Sequence record: OK428535.1 | DNA length: 64,000 nt | Reading direction: 5' to 3' (one strand) | From: Escherichia phage vB_EcoM_Lh1B | Shown: piece after piece, positions 2,251 through 53,533 of the stretch | Position numbering within the stretch: position 1 is the first letter of the stretch | How the letters are laid out: every line of letters starts with the position of its first letter | Notes under the pieces: generated by a model | What the model was told of the DNA's origin: nothing | What the model saw: the letters and a program-made list of their open reading frames with translations, nothing else | Database searches by the model: none | Translations under genes and position numbers: made by a program

Positions 2251-2664
2251 CATCTGAACAACATGGTGCTAACCCGTGGTGATGAAGTTATCGGTCTGTC
2301 TCGTTACGACACGCAAATCGAAAACATCTATCCGGTGTTTGCAGTAGCGATGTTGCGTTTGTTCATGCAGGATAAAGCCGACCTTTGTGGTCAGCTTGCG
2401 GGTATGGCGGATCGTGTTGGTCATATTCTGCCGACGCTGGTGAAACTGTACCCAGTTACGATTGACGTGGCGTTTACTACTGTAGACAACAACCACGGTT
2501 ATATCGTGCTGACCAAAGACGGTAAAGTTATCGCTGGTAATCTGACTGATAACGAAGTGCAGAAGCATATGGACAAATTTGCGTTCATGGTGAATCGCTT
2601 GGCGCACGTCAGTGTCAAACATTCTGAAACTTGGACGACGCTTGTCTCCAAACCTGAACTGTAA
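1738..2664 (+). CDS. Hypothetical protein with an internal 90-aa tandem repeat
   Basis: ORF reads in frame through both duplication units. A second in-frame AAGGAG+ATG at 2008 could yield a shorter isoform. Confidence 0.7.
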   Translation: MAKAPKTVAKDSMASNAIKATKTRTTEFPRSPTIPKPDVIVPISERLKTIHIEREFPIDLGQEIVAVNLGSDVRFTIYKGLTSVNLKEYIMAKAPKTVAKDSTASTATKSAKTSTTEFPRSPTIPKPDVIVPISERLKTIHIEREYPIDLGQEIVAVNLGSDVRFTIYKGAHLNNMVLTRGDEVIGLSRYDTQIENIYPVFAVAMLRLFMQDKADLCGQLAGMADRVGHILPTLVKLYPVTIDVAFTTVDNNHGYIVLTKDGKVIAGNLTDNEVQKHMDKFAFMVNRLAHVSVKHSETWTTLVSKPEL

Positions 2665-2667
2665 TCA

Positions 2668-2705
2668 TTAAGGGGTCTTCGGACCCCTTAATTTTTTGTC
2701 TTTTT
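2668..2705 (+). terminator. Rho-independent terminator
   Basis: aaggggtc-ttcg-gacccctt hairpin followed by a T-run. Confidence 0.75.
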
Positions 2706-2753
2706 ACGCGTTATCCTCATGTTGTGACAGCATTACCTTTTGAGGGCATTACA

Positions 2754-3752
2754 ATGAAAACTGTGGCTAAATTGTTCCGCAGCAGCATTCGCTCTGCCGA
2801 GTTCCAAAATAACGTCGGTACCGATACTGTACGAGCACGCCGCCTAAAAGAGTTTCTAAAGGACGAGACTTATTCTGTTTACGTGGTACGGAATAAAGAA
2901 ACCTGGGAGGGTTATTTAGTGGCCACCTATCGACACGGTGACCCTACACTAACCTGTCACTATTTTGAGGAGTTTGTACCTGGGGCATTCGATAAAGTTG
3001 GTTTAGCCCTTGTGCTCGACCACACAGGCTTCGAATATATGTCGTGCCCGGCACCTACTGGCGATGTTGAACAAAAACTGGTCGAAAAAGGGTTTGTTCT
3101 TTCAGATATCGTCTGGGCATGTCATTCTAAACTGTTTGATAAAGTAATAACTGCATCGGAAATCAAGATTATTTCTGGTGACGCATACGCAGAACTTTCC
3201 AAGGACGACAAAGACGTTATCCTGAATCTGGTCAGTGGTGCAATTTGCGAAGAGCTAGAGTACGATGTGCGCGGCCACTATACGCACATTGGTCCGTTAG
3301 CAGAAACAGTAATAGCAAGAATTCAGCACGCTAATGTGGAAACCGCGATTNGGCNNNACGGGCGTGATATCGTCGGCATTGCCCAAATGCGTTTGGTCGC
3401 GCCAGGCGTCGTTGAACTTTCTGGCTTGACGGTTGCACCTACGCATCGTAAACGTGGCATTGGTCGCCGGTTAATGGGCGCGCTATTCGATTTCGCACAA
3501 CGTCACTCCGACCAAGTCTATATTGAAACAGCTGCTGATAATAATCCGGCAAATCATCTGTATGGCAACATTCTGCGTTGCAAACAGGTACTGCGTACGC
3601 TAACGTTGAAACGCGACCCNGAGCTTATNAGNTGGAAANGNGNAAAAGGGAACCGCGCCGACCGAGTGCTGAAAGAAGAACCTNGCCTCCCGGTGGAGAC
3701 CAACCCCAGACCAACGATTAATGACATGTTTCAATCTGGCATGAGAGGATAG
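2754..3752 (+). CDS. Protein with a C-terminal GNAT acetyltransferase domain
   Basis: GNAT motif A RKRGIGRRLM in the segment VELSGLTVAPTHRKRGIGRRLMGALFDFA. ATG at 2754 has a GAGGG Shine-Dalgarno; the track's GTG at 2724 has none. Confidence 0.65.
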   Translation: MKTVAKLFRSSIRSAEFQNNVGTDTVRARRLKEFLKDETYSVYVVRNKETWEGYLVATYRHGDPTLTCHYFEEFVPGAFDKVGLALVLDHTGFEYMSCPAPTGDVEQKLVEKGFVLSDIVWACHSKLFDKVITASEIKIISGDAYAELSKDDKDVILNLVSGAICEELEYDVRGHYTHIGPLAETVIARIQHANVETAIXXXGRDIVGIAQMRLVAPGVVELSGLTVAPTHRKRGIGRRLMGALFDFAQRHSDQVYIETAADNNPANHLYGNILRCKQVLRTLTLKRDXELXXWKXXKGNRADRVLKEEPXLPVETNPRPTINDMFQSGMRG

Positions 3753-8624: not shown

Positions 8625-9095
8625 ATGCCAGTTTTATACGGCGGCGTGGACCTGGATGTTCTGGGTCGGTTTAAACTACGAACGTCTAAGGCGCTCGTAA
8701 ACGGTTGGGTTGAGAAAGGCGTACGGGATGCGTGTGAGGTCATTTGTAGTTATCCTGGTGCCACGACAATGTGGTCGTGTCACGGACACGGACCGTATTC
8801 TAAAAAGAACACACCGGGGGAATTTCATGTGGTGTTCGTTCTTGGCATCGGCTTTGAACACAAAGCACATGAGCTTGTCGCTGAGTTAATGAAAGCGGAT
8901 ATTCCGCCACTGTGGGATTTGTGCATGGCGAGACTCTTGTACCCTGATGAGGATTTCGTCTACGACCTCAGCGAGATCACCCTAAAGAACACGTATAACG
9001 CATGGAAAATAACGTATCGGCATCTGCATACCGAACAAACTCTTCGCGAAATTCGTAAAGTATTCCACACTGTCTGTAAAAAGGTTTTTAAGTAA
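8625..9095 (+). CDS. Hypothetical protein
   Basis: 156-aa ORF with AAGGAG Shine-Dalgarno. Confidence 0.6.
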   Translation: MPVLYGGVDLDVLGRFKLRTSKALVNGWVEKGVRDACEVICSYPGATTMWSCHGHGPYSKKNTPGEFHVVFVLGIGFEHKAHELVAELMKADIPPLWDLCMARLLYPDEDFVYDLSEITLKNTYNAWKITYRHLHTEQTLREIRKVFHTVCKKVFK

Positions 9096-9793
9096 TGGCT
9101 AAGCAAAAGAAACCCCGTAACAAAAAGTATAACCCAAAAGCTGCTACAGAGCGTACAGCGCACACCATCGCTGAAAACGCACTGAACCGCATCACCTTTA
9201 TTGGCAGCTCCATTCGCCGCCTCGGCCCGTACGCGGGCCGCGGTTTTCACTTTACAGCAAGTCCACGTATTCGTGCTATCGCCNCAGACATGTTAGTCGG
9301 CGGATTGTTCGACCAACCGCGCCCATGGCACCTGTGGGTGATGCACCTCACCGAACTCGACAGCGGTGAGGTTGTGACTGAATCTGCCGTCGCCACGCTT
9401 GACGATTATACACTGGCTGATTTCTGCGAACATGCCGAAGAGCTGGTTAAATCGCTACGTCCTGAACAGGAAGAAGGGAAATATTTCGGTTATGCGTTTG
9501 TGGCCGCCCCGAACGAGCGGTACGACTTCAAAGCGGAAGAAGACCAACTCATTGAAAACTTCATGCATTCTGGACTACTTGATACGTCGTTACATCTGTC
9601 GGAAGAACAGCAGTTCGTTAGTCGTGCAGATATGGCAAAGTTACTTGTTGGTTATACTCGGAAGTTTGACGTGACCGTTGAACATGTCAAAGAAGTACCA
9701 GAGATTNTNANCNAGAAAGACGAGGTGGTGCTTCCGGTTGACGAGGTTGTCAGTAAAGTAGCGACTGCGATAGGGGCAACGGGGGATTACTGA
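9095..9793 (+). CDS. Hypothetical protein
   Basis: 232-aa ORF; start overlaps the previous stop (TAATG). Confidence 0.6.
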   Translation: MAKQKKPRNKKYNPKAATERTAHTIAENALNRITFIGSSIRRLGPYAGRGFHFTASPRIRAIAXDMLVGGLFDQPRPWHLWVMHLTELDSGEVVTESAVATLDDYTLADFCEHAEELVKSLRPEQEEGKYFGYAFVAAPNERYDFKAEEDQLIENFMHSGLLDTSLHLSEEQQFVSRADMAKLLVGYTRKFDVTVEHVKEVPEIXXXKDEVVLPVDEVVSKVATAIGATGDY

Positions 9794-10002
9794 TGAATCT
9801 ACGTTGGCCGATCGTGGCTGCTGTGTTGTTTTGTATTTATATCGCCATCAGCACCAGTACCCGCACTGCAGAACGTCGCGAGACCGCAACCAGTACGTTC
9901 AGAATGTGCATTGACCGCGTAGACCCGAACAGTACCACTTATCCTGACGCGGTGAATGCGTGCCGTAAAGCAGTTGCTGAGATATTGAAAGAGGAAAATT
10001 AA
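9793..10002 (+). CDS. Small membrane protein
   Basis: 69 aa with one hydrophobic helix (WPIVAAVLFCIYIAISTS); start overlaps the upstream stop. Confidence 0.5.
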   Translation: MNLRWPIVAAVLFCIYIAISTSTRTAERRETATSTFRMCIDRVDPNSTTYPDAVNACRKAVAEILKEEN

Positions 10003-10229
10003 TGGAAAACCTCACGCCGGTTGAGATAGTGGCGCTATTCGATCGTTACGTATATGGACAAACGCAGGCAAAGAAAATGNTGGCGATTGCGCTACGTAAT
10101 CGATACCGTGCCAATAAACTTAACGTAGTGGACCGTATGTCGGTCCACAAACAGAACCTTTTAATAGAAGGTCCAACAGGCACGGGTAANNCNNAGTTGA
10201 TGCGTGAAGAAAAACAGAAACAAAAGTGA
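10002..10229 (+). CDS. Truncated HslU-like ATPase N-terminal fragment
   Basis: LTPVEIVALFDRYVYGQTQAKKM-AIALRNRYR...NLLIEGPTGTG closely parallels the HslU N-terminus up to the Walker A GPTGxGKT box, then diverges and stops. Ns fall within the Walker A codons. Confidence 0.6.
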   Translation: MENLTPVEIVALFDRYVYGQTQAKKMXAIALRNRYRANKLNVVDRMSVHKQNLLIEGPTGTGXXXLMREEKQKQK

Positions 10230-10237
10230 GGTAAAGG

Positions 10238-11245
10238 ATGACGAAGCTCGTTTCGTTTTCAGCAGGGTTGGATTCCACCTGGATAATGTATCAGCTGCTA
10301 TGCAAAGCACCGGCCAATGAAGCACGACATGTCCGTCCTGCGTATTTCTCCATGTGGAATGGAGGTAACGCGAACTTCATGGAAATTCTTTGTAGCGTGG
10401 CCATTGTTGAACGGTTGATGGATAGACACCATGCACAAACCGATCATGTTACATGGGCGGTGCTCGGGGAAGAGAACTTCCCGCCTGTCGTTACCGCTGG
10501 ATATGCTAACGGCTGGTCGCCTCTGGTTCAGCAGGGCAATGTTGTTAATGGTCTCGCTAAACTGATGTGTGGTATTACGCGCAAACAGCACCACGCCTAT
10601 GCAGTTGTTGGTTGGAATAAGCTAGATGCGTTGGAGAATAGTCTAGAGCTGGGAGATTGGACATTAGACGAGTACGCTCGCTTAAAGAACCTCTATAGCG
10701 AATTGATGTATTTCCAAGATCATGCCGGTCGCGTTCCACCGCTTCTAACACCTGCGTGGGATAAAGAGAAACTGGAAATGTGGCAGGAGTTGCCGGAAGA
10801 TGTTCGTAGGTTGGTACAGGTCAGTAACTACAACAACTACGAATTCGCGATAGACCGTGGGAATAACGTGCTCATCGTTTATGCCAATCCGTCAGCAAAG
10901 TCGCAGAATTATCGTAGTCTTGGTATTACACCGTCAGTGGGATGGGAGATTAAAATCAACGATGCTTACAGACGGGTATGGTGTTCTGCTCTTGGTAGTG
11001 CTATTTCTGCTATGGGTTTGGGCGTACCGGCTTTTGCTAACTTTAAGGACCCGGAAAGAAACCACACGNCCTTTACGGTAAGNGAAGATACTGACCGGTT
11101 ATGCATCACATCGTTTACCGCGGAAGAGTGGTGCGAGTATGCGCCACATTTTAAAGCGCTTCAGGAGAAAGAAAAAGAGANAGNNAAAAATGCCAAAGCA
11201 AGTAAAGCTGNGGACGCCCCAACTGGCGAAGNGGCGGATAGCTGA
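10238..11245 (+). CDS. PP-loop superfamily ATPase-like protein
   Basis: N-terminal VSFSAGLDST resembles the SGGxDS PP-loop of QueC/PAPS-reductase-type enzymes. The 3' end is uncertain (Ns, low-complexity tail). Confidence 0.45.
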   Translation: MTKLVSFSAGLDSTWIMYQLLCKAPANEARHVRPAYFSMWNGGNANFMEILCSVAIVERLMDRHHAQTDHVTWAVLGEENFPPVVTAGYANGWSPLVQQGNVVNGLAKLMCGITRKQHHAYAVVGWNKLDALENSLELGDWTLDEYARLKNLYSELMYFQDHAGRVPPLLTPAWDKEKLEMWQELPEDVRRLVQVSNYNNYEFAIDRGNNVLIVYANPSAKSQNYRSLGITPSVGWEIKINDAYRRVWCSALGSAISAMGLGVPAFANFKDPERNHTXFTVXEDTDRLCITSFTAEEWCEYAPHFKALQEKEKEXXKNAKASKAXDAPTGEXADS

Positions 11246-11573
11246 AAAACGGAATTTGCCAAAGCTGGATATAACGGTTAAGTCGGGGCTGAAATATTTG
11301 GCACCCGACTGGGACTTTCTGATGGACTACAAGAAGTCTGACAAAGGCCCCGACGCAGAAGCTGCGTATACCAAACGCTACCTGCAGAAACTTAGTCGGT
11401 TGTTTGATGAAGACACCGATAAGTTGATAGAGATTCTCCGCCAGGGCGAGGTCGTACTAATGTGTTATTGCCCACCGGGGAAATTCTGTCATCGCCACTT
11501 GCTAGTTTCCTACCTTATTGAAATCGGTGAGTGGTTCGGTTATGAAGTAATTTACATGGGCGAGTTATCGTAA
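11190..11573 (+). CDS. Hypothetical protein
   Basis: Track ORF 11139-11573; ATG at 11190 (MPKQVKL) is the likelier start, but Ns at 11171-11232 leave frame and start uncertain. Confidence 0.4.
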   Translation: MPKQVKLXTPQLAKXRIAEKRNLPKLDITVKSGLKYLAPDWDFLMDYKKSDKGPDAEAAYTKRYLQKLSRLFDEDTDKLIEILRQGEVVLMCYCPPGKFCHRHLLVSYLIEIGEWFGYEVIYMGELS

Positions 11574-11584
11574 GGAGAGTCCTC

Positions 11585-11980
11585 ATGAAATTGATTATGC
11601 CTAAAACCGTTCCTAATCAGGATATGGTTACGACTACACTGTTTTCTGAATCATTACGCAACTCTGTACGTCAGACCGCTTCACGTCTAGACGTGGCAGT
11701 TGAAGAACTCGACCCNGAAGTCTTCATGAAGTATGCGTTTATTGCAGAAGGTTACGCGATCGCCCTGAGTTATGCGCGGTATGTCGATGACGTGACAGAA
11801 GCTAAACGTTATTTAGAAGGCTGTTGTCAAGTTTTCCGTGAAGAAATCACCGAGATGGAGATGGTTGACCGCGGCTTACCTGAATTTGTAAAGGTGGGTT
11901 ACGATAAGCTGTTGCAATCCATCGCGGATGAAATCGGACGTCGCGGGTTAACTGTAGTGCACAGCGCTACACTGCACTAA
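11585..11980 (+). CDS. Hypothetical protein
   Basis: 131-aa ORF with AAGGAGAG upstream. Confidence 0.6.
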   Translation: MKLIMPKTVPNQDMVTTTLFSESLRNSVRQTASRLDVAVEELDXEVFMKYAFIAEGYAIALSYARYVDDVTEAKRYLEGCCQVFREEITEMEMVDRGLPEFVKVGYDKLLQSIADEIGRRGLTVVHSATLH

Positions 11981-48349: not shown

Positions 48350-51300
48350 TTAGGTACGGAACATAAGATTGACCTGGATAATATCAGGCTGTTGACGTCC
48401 TCTCTCGTTCACCCAATCGTGTGCAATCGTTAACGTAAGATCATCGCCTTCCCACGACACGATCGGTGGTGGGAATAAACCCTGAGCGCCCGTGGTAACA
48501 ACCGGGATTGCACCTGCCACATTCGTAAACGTATAGCTACGACTGTTCAGAACAACCGGTGTGCCGTGGGTCTCTCCCGGCTGTGGTAAGATTTGAATCT
48601 TACTATCCGAAAGATCGGTGGTGATTGGTAGACCCCCAGCGTCCGTGAAAAGCCAAGAGCAAATATNCTGGTTNGCTGTTTCGAGCGCTGAAGAACTCTT
48701 CACAGCCGCGAAAGTAAAGGTGCACGGCACGCCTGCTGGCAGAGAGTGCTGTTTGTGGTGCACGGTATGTGGTGACGGCAATAACACTTCTGGATTTTCG
48801 TCAATGTTAACATCCGTACCTTCCGCCTCGACGTTGTAGAAAAAGCCATCCACCGCCTCCCATGGGGCAACGTGGACATTAAAGGTCGTTTCTACTCCCG
48901 GTGTACCTGGGACGACGAATTTACTTTGCACCACCACCATCATAGTTCTTGAGGTCGGTGAGAAAGCGGGCGTTGGAATACCTACCCACTCCATTCCCAA
49001 CGATGCCGCTTCACCGTTCTCATCAGCCGTTACCGTCGCGATTGTTGTAGGATGTTTCCAAAACGCCCCCGACTTGTTTGCCTGAGTAAACGCCGGCAAA
49101 GTTTTCAAGCCTTCGAAACGTTTGGACACCATCGCTTTACCGCGACGCTGTGCGTCAGATACGGTATAAAGCAACTGACTATCCAGATAGCCTTTCGTAG
49201 CATCGATCGACAAAGGACCCATCGCTTCTTTACGCAATGGTGCCAGTCTGCCCGTTGCTGCATCCCTTCCCACTTCCACATCATGCTTATTCTCAACCGC
49301 CGCATGTTCCAACAGTTGTTTCACCGCCCCCAATCGCTTAGCATGTTCGACGTTAGTCTCGACGACTCGTGACGAGCCCGTTTTAACATACCCGATATAG
49401 AGTTCCGTTTCAGTGTCTGGATGTTGAATCACGTCCATTACGTACTTCGGTGTACCATTTTCTACCTTGGCGTGCAGGTAGAATGTCCGGTTCTGATGGT
49501 TTGTTGGAAATGCTGCGCTGAGGTCAATATACCACGTAGGCAGCTTATAAGTGCTCGAGCCGAAACGCAGGTCAACTTCCTCAGTCACATATACCAGCCA
49601 ACCTTCGGCTGTTTCCACNCCAGCAATGACGACCGATTCAGTCGGGCCACTAAAATTAGGAGCCGCGACAAAATCACTCGACGACATTGCGATACCACCA
49701 CAATAGACGTAGTCGAGAGATGAGTTGTGTAGCATCACCTGATCACGATGAGCCAGATAAGCTGGGCTGACTGGAGTGTGTGATGGTGCCATGCGTCCAA
49801 TGCCGTGTGGAGCAGAAGAACGCGTCCAGGTACCATTAGACAGCGTAAGACCAACACCGTAGTTAAGCGCACCCAAGTCGCCAATTTGGCGCAAGGTTAA
49901 CGTGTGTGGAAGATACAACCCGAACTGCGTACCATCTACTGACACCAGTGTAGGTTGTCCCGGCCGGCGTGTTTTTCCTCCCGTTATCTCACCCAACGTA
50001 GCATAGTTCAAGCCATAGTCGAGGTTGTTATAGAAGTCAAACAATGCCAATATCGCTGCCGGGAATGTTACCTGCCCGTTACTGATTGTTGGTTTCAGTG
50101 TAAAGTAGTAGATATCCAACAAGTTAACATTGTTCACAGTACGCGTACATGCTACTTGTGCTAACGTGAGCGGTGTGGCCGTACCAATGCCGATGAACCA
50201 AATGGAGAACAGTGCCTTTCCGGCGTTATTTGCGGCAAGGATAAATTCCGAAGCATAACCATTCGCAGCGCCAGCCGGTGCGCCGTCGATAATCATCTGC
50301 TTCATCTTATCCCATTCGGCTTGTGACAGCGTCAACCGATCGGCATGAATCGTGAAAGTGCCAGAAACGTTGTGGTAAGGGAATGTTTCTGGTCCTGTGC
50401 AATACCAGCCGTTTAACTCTGTACCAGGCGACGCCGGTGTAACAATGTGGCACATCTGCGACAGATTCTCGTACGTGGTAGAATCTACTACACGACGATT
50501 GTTAGTTGGTCCATACCCCGCTTTACCTGAATAAGTGGTGTTCGGATCAAACTCAACTTCAATTGCCAAACGGGTACGCGGCTGTGACAACCAGATAAGT
50601 CTGGAATTCGCTCCCAGAGTCAGCGGATACGCCATGCCCAGCTCGTAGATAGAACCACGACCTTGGTTTAACATTACCGCACTAAAACTTCTGGCAGTGA
50701 AGTTGTAGTCGCACGACAGGTACTCGTACCAACTCACACCGTCATCTAACGTTGTAATCGTGACATAAGGCATTAGGTCGCGATCGCCTGCATGTCCTTG
50801 CGAAACGATATACTTGTCTTGCGATGTTGCAAAGGTTCGGTTATTAGCTTGACCTTCGCCCCATTTCCGGCTCGGAATCCCAATCTCAGCGCCACCGTTA
50901 TAACGAACCGTGGTAAGATCGGCCACAATAGGGAATCGATCAGCACCTTCCAGCGTTATCGTCATTGAACTACAATCAACAACAAAGCTTGACACCCATT
51001 GTTTAAAGTTAATAGTTTGCCCTGTAGTAGAAGCAAACCAAACCGTTGGAGTTAAACCAACACGAAAGTTCAGCCCATCCACACCAATCGCGTGATTACA
51101 TTCCGGACCATGGACAAATTTCGTCGCACTATTCCACTTCGCCGATGCGTCTGCGTAGATTTGTGTTACTGGCGCTACCAACACATCTGTATCAGAACGN
51201 TTCTGACCCTGACGCAAGTAGATATTATCTCCCGACGTTAACATCCCACCTGTTAACACATCCGCCACAAACGTGTTGCTACCACCCAGATTAAGTTCGT

Positions 51301-53533
51301 CGAGTGCGATGCTACGCATACTCACGAAATAGTCACCGGAGGTAAGCACAGTACGGAGCAGATAAACCCGCTCGTTGCAAACGATCAAATCGTTTGTTGA
51401 TGGATCAACAACCCATGGAGCGGTTGTAACTGACACCGGCCCGTTACCATTTCGGTAATCGCCCAACTGAACTTTAACAACACGATGATGTTTTGCATGG
51501 TCAATGGTGCCGTCAAAGATGACCAGGTAGTACGCACCGTCACTGCCTAAGCAGATCATTGCATCTGTACCGGTAATCACAATAGCAACCAGATTCACCC
51601 CAGGATACGCCGACATTCCAGCGGGTCGATAACGTACGGACGTCTGCTGCATATTTTCCAGCGTATTGCTTGGCGACACATCAGCATAGGCGTAATAGAT
51701 AGCCCAGTCACCTGGTGGATTCCCGTTAGAACCATTACGGAGCGAGTAAACCTTACCAGACTCGTAACGCGCCAAACCTTTCTGCCAGGTTTGGTTTTTG
51801 GTATACCCTTCGTAGTTCCCCTGGACAGGTATAGGCAAGAAGTTATTGTTGCCGTACGATGATCCGCCGACAGTCCATGCGGGCAACAGCGTAGCAATCT
51901 TGTCATTCAGTGTGTCAATCTTTTGTTCAAGCAAGAAGCCCTGACGCGAAGTGACCATCTTATCCGAGGTAGTGTCGATTGCATCCCACAGTTTAGCCAA
52001 ACCTGTAACAGACGTGGATGCGTACGGCACGTTATCGAGATCTGCAATGGTGTGGGTGTGCGTTGTAAGCGCTTTGCCTGATAGCACGGTGCGCAACGCA
52101 TTAGTAACCGGTTTCTCCAGCGGCCCGGTATTGTTCATCTTCTCAATACCGAAATCTGCCGCGGTTAAGGTCAGATGCATCTGCCCGTTTGAATCTAATA
52201 CAAACCCTTTACCATTGACTGTATACGTGTCGTCCACATATCCGTCGAGTTTGTTCTTCAAGTCAGTAACAGCTTTTTGGGAAATCGCTGTGGANGCCGC
52301 AGCGGACGCCGAAAGGTTAGTAATCGCAAACAAACCCTGCACAGTTGTGGTTGCTGCAGGCAGCTCCGCATTCATGTAAACTTTGTTTGTTTCTTTACCA
52401 GAGCCGTAAATCTTCAACGTGTCGCTGGACTTGAAGTAGGCGTTTGCTGGAAGTATCTTCACCGAGGTCAAGTACATCTTAACCATATCCGGTGTAACGA
52501 GATACACGCTGTTATACACAGGTGCAAGCACACCTGCATCATAAGCGCCCCACTTGTCACCTGCTTTACCCGAGTGAACCCAAAGCGTGTTCAGACCAGC
52601 ACTGAACTCCGTAGCGATACCCGGTTCGTTGTTATCCCGGTCAGCTTTTAATACCAGCGGTTTTGTCGAGGTGATAATGAACTTCTCACCCTTCATGCTG
52701 ATAACGTGACCAGACGTTGTTTGGAACGTAATCGCGTCGTTATTCAGAACACGCATACGGCCCAGTAAATCGCCCAGGGTATTATCCAGAAGCATGTCAA
52801 CGTGTTTCTGTTGGATGCCACTGGTAGACATTAACGTCACTAACTCTGCCAGTGTACGTCCAAACGCTTTAGTCGCATCCACGGCCTTACCGAGCACAGG
52901 GAGTGCGCCAATGTCACCGCAGGTGTAACCATGTGCATTTTTAATCAGGTGGTGTTGATACATTTCGTCATCAAACACCTGTTTACCGTTCTGATAAATC
53001 AAATCGGTAACTTCGGCAAATGCCTCATCCAGTTCGTGGGCGCGCTCTAAAATACCCAGACGGATATCTTCCAACGCCTTTACGATTTCATCGCGAAGAA
53101 TCGCTTCTTCGAGATCTTTTGGCGGGTCGATTGGCGAGATAATCGGTGGATATTTCATCAGCTCAGACCAATCGCAGTTGCGCGGGTCTTTCATATCCGT
53201 CTTAACCAGATACTTGCCGATTTCAGAAGCAGGGATGCGGTACTGTCGACCAACCGACAACAACTCGTATTCTACCTCTGTGGCGTTCAGCAGCATTATG
53301 CTGCCGTATATTGCATCGTTCTCAGCCTCGGCTAATTCCTGGAAGTAATGTCCTAAGAAATAATCAAGACCTTCTATTAACTTGCGTTTGGTTCCGGTTA
53401 TTTTATCGGTAACGGTTAACGTTAACCCGATGCGATAGAACGGTGCTTCGACGGGAATGACCGTCGAATAACGGTTCGGGTAAGTAGCGGTACTGAGGGT
53501 ACCGTTAAACTGCGCCGCATCTTCTCTCGGCAT
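48350..53533 (-). CDS. Giant tail fibre/spike-like protein (about 1727-1742 aa) with gp17-like N-terminal motif
   Basis: N-terminus VIPVEAPFYRIGLTLTV...KLIEGLDYFLGHYF. ATG at 53533 has GGAG upstream; the track's TTG start is 53578. Confidence 0.75.
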   Translation of the reverse strand: MPREDAAQFNGTLSTATYPNRYSTVIPVEAPFYRIGLTLTVTDKITGTKRKLIEGLDYFLGHYFQELAEAENDAIYGSIMLLNATEVEYELLSVGRQYRIPASEIGKYLVKTDMKDPRNCDWSELMKYPPIISPIDPPKDLEEAILRDEIVKALEDIRLGILERAHELDEAFAEVTDLIYQNGKQVFDDEMYQHHLIKNAHGYTCGDIGALPVLGKAVDATKAFGRTLAELVTLMSTSGIQQKHVDMLLDNTLGDLLGRMRVLNNDAITFQTTSGHVISMKGEKFIITSTKPLVLKADRDNNEPGIATEFSAGLNTLWVHSGKAGDKWGAYDAGVLAPVYNSVYLVTPDMVKMYLTSVKILPANAYFKSSDTLKIYGSGKETNKVYMNAELPAATTTVQGLFAITNLSASAAXSTAISQKAVTDLKNKLDGYVDDTYTVNGKGFVLDSNGQMHLTLTAADFGIEKMNNTGPLEKPVTNALRTVLSGKALTTHTHTIADLDNVPYASTSVTGLAKLWDAIDTTSDKMVTSRQGFLLEQKIDTLNDKIATLLPAWTVGGSSYGNNNFLPIPVQGNYEGYTKNQTWQKGLARYESGKVYSLRNGSNGNPPGDWAIYYAYADVSPSNTLENMQQTSVRYRPAGMSAYPGVNLVAIVITGTDAMICLGSDGAYYLVIFDGTIDHAKHHRVVKVQLGDYRNGNGPVSVTTAPWVVDPSTNDLIVCNERVYLLRTVLTSGDYFVSMRSIALDELNLGGSNTFVADVLTGGMLTSGDNIYLRQGQXRSDTDVLVAPVTQIYADASAKWNSATKFVHGPECNHAIGVDGLNFRVGLTPTVWFASTTGQTINFKQWVSSFVVDCSSMTITLEGADRFPIVADLTTVRYNGGAEIGIPSRKWGEGQANNRTFATSQDKYIVSQGHAGDRDLMPYVTITTLDDGVSWYEYLSCDYNFTARSFSAVMLNQGRGSIYELGMAYPLTLGANSRLIWLSQPRTRLAIEVEFDPNTTYSGKAGYGPTNNRRVVDSTTYENLSQMCHIVTPASPGTELNGWYCTGPETFPYHNVSGTFTIHADRLTLSQAEWDKMKQMIIDGAPAGAANGYASEFILAANNAGKALFSIWFIGIGTATPLTLAQVACTRTVNNVNLLDIYYFTLKPTISNGQVTFPAAILALFDFYNNLDYGLNYATLGEITGGKTRRPGQPTLVSVDGTQFGLYLPHTLTLRQIGDLGALNYGVGLTLSNGTWTRSSAPHGIGRMAPSHTPVSPAYLAHRDQVMLHNSSLDYVYCGGIAMSSSDFVAAPNFSGPTESVVIAXVETAEGWLVYVTEEVDLRFGSSTYKLPTWYIDLSAAFPTNHQNRTFYLHAKVENGTPKYVMDVIQHPDTETELYIGYVKTGSSRVVETNVEHAKRLGAVKQLLEHAAVENKHDVEVGRDAATGRLAPLRKEAMGPLSIDATKGYLDSQLLYTVSDAQRRGKAMVSKRFEGLKTLPAFTQANKSGAFWKHPTTIATVTADENGEAASLGMEWVGIPTPAFSPTSRTMMVVVQSKFVVPGTPGVETTFNVHVAPWEAVDGFFYNVEAEGTDVNIDENPEVLLPSPHTVHHKQHSLPAGVPCTFTFAAVKSSSALETXNQXICSWLFTDAGGLPITTDLSDSKIQILPQPGETHGTPVVLNSRSYTFTNVAGAIPVVTTGAQGLFPPPIVSWEGDDLTLTIAHDWVNERGRQQPDIIQVNLMFRT

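Follow-up and report, generated by a model that had tools for sequence, protein, structure and literature searches.

A 75-codon open reading frame (ORF) of Escherichia phage vB_EcoM_Lh1B that resembles the N-terminus of the bacterial unfoldase HslU is very probably the scar of a deletion in a phage HslU-like gene. We regard it as a non-functional remnant and not as a purpose-built decoy. The ORF lies in a stretch of 64,000 nucleotides of sequence record OK428535.1, which we call the window, and all positions are counted from its first letter. Close relatives carry the full-length gene at the same locus, the two parts of the ORF meet at a 9-nt repeat that occurs at both ends of the missing segment, and the same truncation is present in genomes that contain no ambiguous bases.

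A short ORF that begins like HslU

The ORF, its parts and its neighbours are arranged as follows.

9793..10002, + strand: upstream neighbour, a 69-aa homologue of SPN3US gp150 (phrog_28359 match); left border of the variable locus
9991..9994, + strand: Shine-Dalgarno-like GAGG, 7 nt 5' of the ATG, read from the sequence
10002..10229, + strand: 75-codon chimeric ORF, ATG at 10002 and TGA at 10227-10229, from the ORF list, the EC001 translation and the junction alignment
10002..10195, + strand: HslU-like-derived part of the ORF (N-terminal helices, strand beta-1 and the P-loop region GPTGTG(K/N)...), 11% of the 586-aa parent
10190..10195, + strand: four Ns (10190, 10191, 10193, 10194) and an A (10195) at the Walker A Lys-Thr codons, from the junction alignment
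10196..10204, + strand: GTTGATGCG, the 9-nt junction microhomology, with one parental copy in hslU-like codons 65-68 and another close to the end of the gp148 homologue, both read in the L-M-R phase
10205..10237, + strand: gp148-homologue-derived part, comprising the last 7 codons (EEKQKQK), the stop and a short spacer with the ribosome-binding site (RBS) of the next gene
10238..11245, + strand: downstream neighbour, a 335-aa homologue of SPN3US gp147 (phrog_8825 match); right border of the variable locus

The predicted protein is MENLTPVEIVALFDRYVYGQTQAKKMxAIALRNRYRANKLNVVDRMSVHKQNLLIEGPTGTGxxxLMREEKQKQK. It is composed of hslU-like codons 1 to about 65, the repeat-encoded L-M-R and, from the gp148 homologue, the stop and the 7 codons before it. 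The N-free counterpart in phage EC001 is the same 228-nt ORF, reads ...GPTGTGKTALMREEKQKQK up to its stop, and is annotated as a 'putative heat shock protein' (QKN85958.1, EC001 gp120).

The ORF sits within a co-directional gene block. The initial annotation had described an RBS and close gene packing, and both are present: the GAGG at 9991-9994 precedes the start, the ATG shares a base with the stop codon of the upstream ORF (TAATG at 10000-10004), and the downstream gene begins 9 nt past the stop codon of the ORF. The AGAGGAAAAnTAATG context around the GAGG is identical in the full-length alleles of phages 1252 and MET. Because the same context surrounds the full-length gene in these relatives, the RBS and packing are inherited features, and the GAGG was passed on unchanged from the full-length parent. 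When we scanned 9000-11600 for promoters and terminators, nothing rose above shuffled expectation, and there were no signals specific to the 75-codon ORF.

The resemblance to HslU is real and far beyond chance. BLASTP of the fragment against E. coli HslU gave 33 identities in 68 positions (49%) without gaps (E=1e-19), spanning residues 1-68 of both proteins, and the N-containing version from the window was 45.6% identical to HslU by tblastn. The best NCBIfam family was TIGR00390 (hslU), matched at profile positions 1-65 of 441 (E=1.9e-16). The score of 60 bits falls below the curated cut-off of 362 bits for this equivalog. HslU chains in the PDB matched over residues 1-69 (E=5e-14). In a Pfam search of the fragment and its neighbours the fragment had no match because it is too short; NCBIfam and PHROGs did detect it. 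The match had first been described as nearly residue-for-residue. The homology is indeed colinear and free of gaps, but at 46-49% identity only about half of the residues agree.

The reading of the ORF as a truncated N-terminal fragment of the HslU type was borne out, since the alignment stops after residues 1-68 and the truncation is genuine in N-free genomes. The similarity to bacterial HslU (ClpY), the ATPase subunit of HslUV, takes in the IGQ..AK..AIALRNR helix and runs into the GPTGxGKT P-loop. GPTGTG is present in the window ORF, while the codons for the Walker A Lys-Thr are masked (AAN NCN); EC001 has GKT here, and JN03 and SPLA1a have GPRGTGKT. In contrast to bacterial HslU, the fragment has no pore loop, I domain, Walker B, sensors, small domain or HslV-activating tail, and no hslV lies nearby. 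It stops ahead of both the GYVG pore loop and the I (intermediate) domain. Walker B, sensor-1, the Arg finger and sensor-2 are missing from the ORF and from the remainder of the window, and tblastn of the 64-kb window found no other part of an hslU-like gene, no hslV, and no body of gp149 or gp148.

The parent is a full-length gene of the phage lineage

The region around the ORF is 92-99% identical to genomes of Seoulvirus, a group of SPN3US-like jumbo phages of Salmonella and E. coli. End-to-end gapless matches to this region came only from vB_EcoM_EC001 and from Salmonella phages SPLA1a and JN03. When the fragment was used as a tblastn query, it matched 135 phage records, and in those related jumbo-phage loci that we opened, a long gene begins with this stretch. 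Salmonella phages 1252, MET_P1_082_240, SPLA3 and SPAsTU encode at this locus a full-length HslU-like AAA+ protein of 586 aa. Full-length genes are also found in other genera, in Erwinia phages Machina and ChrisDB (578-580 aa), in Wellington (580 aa) and in Cronobacter phage CR5 (687 aa).

With the full-length 1252 protein as query, tblastn returned 28 records at a coverage of at least 80%. Phages 1252, SPLA3 and MET_P1_082_240 are 96-100% identical over 586 aa. SPAsTU, STsAS and pEa_SNUABM_29 are more distant at 72%, and Machina, Huxley, ChrisDB, Wellington, Kwan, CR5, Derbicus and others are at 43-51%. The fragment is 93-100% identical to the full-length Seoulvirus genes over the first 68 residues and 60-85% identical to those of other genera; the tblastn match to residues 1-68 of phage 1252 is 92.6%. 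At the nucleotide level, 10002..10195 is 98.9% identical to the 5' end of the full-length SPLA3 gene.

The full-length phage proteins carry Walker A, GYVG, Walker B (VVFLDE[IF]DK), sensor-1 (LFVAAGSF), an Arg finger (ELQGRFP) and sensor-2 (LGARRL). In place of the bacterial I domain they have an unrelated insert of about 300 aa, and like the fragment they lack the C-terminal tail that docks and activates HslV. On the hslU model they score 206-210 bits, under the 362-bit cut-off. A PHROG search placed the 1252 protein at positions 2-529 of the 552 in phrog_4339 (E=1.8e-148) and the fragment at positions 2-70 of the same family (E=1.9e-31). These data indicate that the full-length proteins are best classed as HslU-like phage unfoldases (phrog_4339) and not as HslU orthologues. 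By the same comparisons, the 75-aa fragment is a truncated derivative of a phrog_4339 member, and a functional member neither of phrog_4339 nor of bacterial HslU. The full-length members (1252 XAN61431.1; MET_P1_082_240 WFG41614.1, named 'HslU'; Machina gp129; CR5_127) share locus, start codon and RBS with the window ORF. Unlike them, the ORF keeps 11% of the protein, has lost everything past the P-loop, and takes its last 7 codons from another gene.

The deletion junction lies in a 9-nt direct repeat

Past ...GPTGTG(KTA)LMR the ORF departs from HslU and ends in EEKQKQK and a stop. This had been described as a sequence that diverges and terminates after Walker A. The departure is there, but it is not drift: a deletion has attached the closing stretch of another gene, the gp148 homologue, and this makes up the tail. 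In SPN3US the locus lacks an hslU-like gene and encodes gp149 (161 aa) and gp148 (110 aa). The gp148 of SPN3US, 1252 and MET ends in ...AKLMREEKQKQK and a stop, a tail shared with the window ORF, and the gp148 3' end and spacer are identical at 41 of 41 positions between the window and SPLA3, 1252, MET and SPN3US.

Nucleotide alignment locates the join. In 1252 and MET the hslU-like gene reads ...GGTAAAACGGC-GTTGATGCG-GGTACTGAAAAC... at the repeat, and the gp148 3' end reads ...CTGAACGCTAA-GTTGATGCG-TGAAGAAAAACAGAAACAAAAGTGA. EC001, JN03 and SPLA1a have hslU-type sequence on the left, a single GTTGATGCG, and gp148-type sequence on the right. Thus 1252, MET and SPLA3 each have the 9-mer at the two endpoints, and the window has it once, at 10196-10204. 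The distance from one copy to the other is 1956 bp in 1252, where gp149 is missing, 2427 bp in MET and 2428 bp in SPLA3. Since each copy is read as L-M-R, with its codons in register, the join preserves the reading frame, which runs on to the stop of gp148. With the intact parental arrangement preserved in close relatives and a junction that is a direct repeat with one copy kept, the 75-codon ORF has the hallmarks of a deletion remnant, as far as the aligned genomes can tell. The SPFM14 locus was left out of the junction analysis since the deposited record is block-scrambled.

The truncation does not depend on the ambiguous bases

The ORF contains Ns at 10080, 10190, 10191, 10193 and 10194. 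These are substitutions and not indels and, base by base, the ORF lines up with its N-free 228-nt counterpart in EC001, JN03 and SPLA1a. The concern raised at the outset, that a resolved sequence might reveal an intact full-length ATPase behind an N or frameshift artefact, can be set aside, as the N-free genomes have the identical 75-codon ORF. A full-length gene masked by a frameshift or by Ns was likewise ruled out by the junction alignment and by tblastn of the window.

The four Ns at 10190-10194 and the A at 10195 coincide exactly with the five positions, immediately before the 9-mer, that distinguish the end of gp148 from hslU. The junction in the window likely reads GGTAA joined to CGCTAAGTTGATGCG (G-N-A-K), which would place the crossover 7-8 nt upstream of that in EC001, JN03 and SPLA1a. 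The protein would then read GPTGTG-NAK-LMR..., without the Walker A Lys-Thr, at the same junction length as in EC001. Such an upstream crossover would mean that, inside one and the same 17-nt imperfect repeat, the deletion either arose again independently or was resolved in another way. When the junction pattern of the window was scanned for with the masked positions left free, there were 0 exact-pattern matches in IMG/VR viral contigs and 0 in JGI metagenome contigs. Of the candidate proteins for the window (GNAK, GKTE and GKTA, each with V7), none was found in a collection of 15 billion proteins, where the EC001 version alone was present.

The stretch that holds 10190-10195 reads GGTCCAACAGGCACGGGTAA....GTTGATGCGTGAAG.

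The window corresponds index for index to positions 96001-160000 of EC001 (MN445185.1), with 1865 substitutions, 259 Ns and 0 indels in 64,000 positions. Every other relative breaks into 4-10 blocks per 25 kb when compared with the window. The absence of indels over 64 kb suggests that the window is a consensus templated on EC001. The Ns are concentrated in SNP-dense patches where the window differs from EC001. We also considered the Ns as sites of a mixed population, polymorphic among relatives, and rejected this, since only 1 of 13 N sites was polymorphic against a background of 9%.

Templating on EC001 raises the question of whether the deletion in the window was itself inherited from the template, such that the sequenced phage may have an intact hslU-like gene, gp149 and gp148 like SPLA3, which is closest to it at this locus. 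The lack of indels and the N-rich patches fit this idea. So do the flanks of the junction, which on both sides are 99.5% identical to SPLA3, a phage with the full-length gene, and 95-98% identical to the other truncated genomes. In addition, the only non-reference calls near the junction are the five positions that separate the gp148 3' end from hslU. However, if the reads came from an intact hslU gene, disagreement with the template would be expected on the right-hand side of the 9-mer as well, where no base is ambiguous. The outright call of A at 10195 fits reads that span GGTAA and CGCTAAGTTGATGCG at the same length as the template junction, and truncated alleles with V7, as in the window, occur independently (P0002). 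We therefore consider an inherited deletion unlikely. Even if it were true, the truncated allele is genuine in EC001, JN03 and SPLA1a, which were assembled independently, and the biological conclusion would be unchanged.

The HslU-like gene was lost more than once in Seoulvirus

We defined five architectures over the interval between the gp150 and gp147 homologues.

Type A: hslU-like gene, gp149 and gp148; MET and SPLA3
Type B: hslU-like gene and gp148; 1252
Type C: 12-codon hslU stub, gp149 and gp148; SPN3US, SaP7, SEGD1, SPLA5c and the SPFM series, about 25 records
Type D: 12-codon stub and gp148; Proteus phage 7
Type E: 75-codon fusion; the window, EC001, JN03 and SPLA1a

The full-length gene is found in all outgroup genera, which indicates that its presence is ancestral. 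The type E junction is identical in the three N-free genomes, EC001, JN03 and SPLA1a. An exact protein look-up found the EC001 75-aa peptide on 5 contigs, Salmonella Larochelle assemblies among them. The stub of types C and D is the product of a separate 1750-bp deletion between two GCGCTATT 8-mers, one in hslU codons 11-13 and the other just past the hslU stop, which left 12 codons. About 26 of roughly 35 Seoulvirus records have this 12-codon stub, and the 75-codon stump is missing from them. Judged from these alignments, the HslU-like gene was lost at least twice in Seoulvirus, each time by a deletion between short direct repeats. The second loss, through a different deletion of 1750 bp, indicates that these phages can do without the gene.

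The stump shows no sign of selection

JN03 and SPLA1a both carry T59R, which turns GPTG into GPRG at a residue that is invariant in E. coli HslU and in the five full-length phage proteins aligned. SPLA1a additionally carries A11S and L12P. A +1 frameshift in the A-run changes the tail of one cluster mate to EEKTETKVR, and M46H/S47T is found in a second. T59R, L12P and the frameshifted tail were seen in truncated alleles only. Substitutions in the fragment number 7 synonymous to 1 non-synonymous in the window and 7 to 3 in SPLA1a, too few for dN/dS. Most of the synonymous changes are polymorphisms common to full-length alleles and so cannot be placed after the deletion; they probably predate it or came by recombination. 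The reading frame is intact, with a good RBS, in every truncated genome seen, and a selected micro-protein would look alike. However, with divergence of 5% or less, disruption of a 228-nt frame is not yet expected, so the intact frame is uninformative. We see no indication in these alleles of selection on the stump.

These data bear on the proposal that the ORF is an exapted micro-protein kept by selection, either as a dominant-negative subunit or decoy that poisons hexamers of host HslU (ClpY) or by titrating a factor that recognises the HslU N-terminus. In its favour, the frame and its inherited RBS are intact in at least 5 independent assemblies and in variants, and no part of the family is better conserved than the N-terminal 68 residues. 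Yet the deletion that created the ORF also destroyed gp148, and gp149 where present, and the many Seoulvirus phages that keep only 12 codons propagate normally. The peptide matches host HslU at no more than 46-49% of residues. Since it stops at the P-loop or within it, most of the alpha/beta core is missing, as are the small domain, pore loop, I domain and HslV-docking tail. Some truncated alleles have changed the invariant T59 or shifted the frame of the tail, and in the window the Walker A Lys-Thr has probably been replaced by Asn-Ala.

The small domain forms the subunit interfaces of AAA+ proteins, and the architecture of HslU is well established (e.g. PDB 1G4A, 1DO0). When the alignment is read against this architecture, the stump has one strand of the five-stranded core, and the interfaces that a dominant-negative subunit needs are missing. 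The decoy or dominant-negative role suggested in the initial annotation is thus unsupported: the ORF is the product of a deletion, most members of the genus do without it, it has no elements for hexamer formation, substrate engagement or HslV docking, and its P-loop and tail are changed. We consider an exapted micro-protein very unlikely.

A related proposal is that the stump is translated and was co-opted as a peptide of N-terminal helices that competes with the N-terminal region of host HslU or ClpX, or with a partner of the lost unfoldase. If selected, such a peptide could also account for essentially the same deletion on two backgrounds with two slightly different crossover points (the EC001 type and the window type), but we give this proposal little credence.

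Finally, among bacterial proteins the fragment matches HslU best, but recent capture of part of a host hslU gene by illegitimate recombination, or a host-derived remnant as first suggested, is refuted on a recent time scale by the identity figures and the junction alignment: the parent is the syntenic gene of the phage lineage itself, the fragment being 93-100% identical to these phage genes against 46-49% to the HslU of Salmonella and E. coli, and the phage genes have an insert of about 300 aa that is not an I domain, no bacterial C-terminal tail, and 206-210 bits where 362 are required. The divergence of the phage genes from bacterial HslU indicates that any acquisition from a cell predates the split of several jumbo-phage genera.

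A model for the origin of the stump

We therefore return to the deletion scar as the reading we prefer. In an ancestral Seoulvirus, the space between the homologues of gp150 and gp147 would have been taken up by the full-length gene for a 586-aa HslU-like unfoldase and, behind it, gp148, with gp149 present or absent. The two GTTGATGCG copies, one of them in hslU-like codons 65-68 and the other 7 codons ahead of the stop of gp148, are part of a 17-nt imperfect repeat. Slippage during replication, or recombination, between them would then have removed about 2.0-2.4 kb (1956 or about 2428 bp). We infer the deletion mechanism from the position of the repeats, and either slippage or short-homology recombination would produce the observed junction. 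The fused ORF would have retained the parental RBS and start and would terminate at the gp148 stop, just ahead of the RBS of the next gene. Within its co-directional block, the stump is probably still transcribed and translated.

What would be made is a peptide of N-terminal helices, one beta-strand and at most the P-loop of the AAA+ domain. Such a peptide is predicted to be unable to bind or hydrolyse ATP, to form hexamers, or to engage substrate or HslV. The stump would thus have no function of its own, a lack that we infer from the elements it is missing, and may persist simply because a 228-nt frame decays slowly.

Deletions between short direct repeats (microhomology deletions) are classically described in phages T4 rII and T7. 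The events described here are of the same kind and show no difference from them: the endpoints lie in perfect repeats of 8-9 nt (GTTGATGCG in one event and GCGCTATT in the other), and one copy is kept. The mechanism by which the ORF was formed is a textbook one, and the finding is of little importance in itself.

The full-length parent has a distant homologue, at about 32% identity, in gp116 of Erwinia phage RAY, an HslUV-family protein that localises to the phage nucleus and is accessory rather than core in the nucleus-forming (chimallin) phages (Prichard et al., Cell Rep 2023, PMC10299810). RAY gp116 is full-length, folded and expressed, whereas the window has the stump only. Its accessory status agrees with the repeated loss of the gene in Seoulvirus, and its nuclear localisation suggests that even the parent protein may not act on host HslUV.

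These results have consequences for how the sequences are used. Since the window looks to be templated on EC001, its structural features should not be counted as independent observations. The 'putative heat shock protein' label of EC001 gp120, and similar entries, name a stump that is 11% of the gene; such records ought to be marked as remnants, or as fusions to the 3' end of gp148. For the biology of these phages, the repeated losses indicate that SPN3US-type nucleus-forming jumbo phages can grow on Salmonella or E. coli without their HslU-like unfoldase, and the stub-bearing genomes are natural knock-outs in which the role of the full-length unfoldase may be studied.

The window sequence and related deposited records

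Compared with Escherichia phage vB_EcoM_EC001, which carries the same 75-aa ORF in an N-free genome, window 1-64000 is colinear index for index with MN445185.1 96001-160000, with 1865 substitutions, 259 Ns and 0 indels. SNP density is highly uneven, from 161 per 2 kb at 50001-52000 to 0 per 2 kb at 54001-56000, and the Ns are concentrated where SNPs are dense. These data suggest that the window is a consensus templated on EC001, and its structural features are therefore not independent of MN445185.1.

Ten SPFM records (SPFM5-15/20) match the 75-aa-ORF locus in about 30 short pieces. In SPFM14 (LR535912.1 134969-139148), the gp148 tail is directly joined to gp147 5' sequence. The deposited SPFM records appear block-scrambled at this locus.

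Deposits for Salmonella enterica serovar Larochelle assemblies also include a peptide identical to the 75-aa one of EC001 (protein cluster P0001-P0005). The peptide lies on a 240,428-bp contig, and therefore a complete Seoulvirus genome was co-assembled with the bacterial isolate, reflecting either a carrier state or contamination.

Genes flanking and missing from the locus

Two ORFs follow the 75-aa ORF, and two SPN3US genes are absent:

Window 10238-11245, +: 335-aa ORF, phrog_8825, start MTKLVSFSAGLDSTW
Window 11139-11573, +: 144-aa ORF, SPN3US gp146 homologue, annotated DUF488 family protein
SPN3US locus 2594-3079: gp149, absent from the window
SPN3US locus 3076-3408: gp148, absent from the window

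The 335-aa ORF is kept in every Seoulvirus genome examined. It has no Pfam match; its opening MTKLVSFSAGLDSTW resembles a PP-loop (SGGxDS) ATP-pyrophosphatase motif. Its end is overlapped by about 55-107 nt by the start region of the gp146 homologue, whose start-codon choice varies among records (384 vs 435 nt).

The window-type allele has lost gp148 and gp149 alike. At its N-terminus, gp148 has a Sec signal peptide of the typical kind (MKKVLVLLGALVAPMVAHA). The 'head maturation protease' label of gp149 comes from phrog_7478. This label is doubtful, because gp149 has no Pfam support and because phage 1252, Proteus phage 7 and phages of the window type are viable although they lack it.

The HslU-like gene in other jumbo-phage genomes

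Separately from the window-type deletion, a 1750-bp deletion between two GCGCTATT 8-mers removed the HslU-like gene from SPN3US-type genomes. The repeat pair is present in phage 1252, which has the gene, at L007 3531 and 5281. What remains is a 12-codon stub (MENLTPIEIVAL...), unannotated in SPN3US-type records, inside the gp150-gp149 spacer (SPN3US locus 2503-2594).

Full-length jumbo-phage HslU-like genes occupy the following intervals:

L007 (phage 1252) 3501-5261
L008 3501-5261
L003 2501-4237
L005 2474-4216
L006 2480-4543

No hslV lies near any of these five genes. Unlike bacterial HslU, their products lack the C-terminal HslV-docking tail, and they contain an insert of ~300-400 aa that has no relation to the I domain of the bacterial protein. 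All retain the GYVG pore loop and every AAA+ motif, and a distant homologue, Erwinia phage RAY gp116, is nuclear (PMC10299810).
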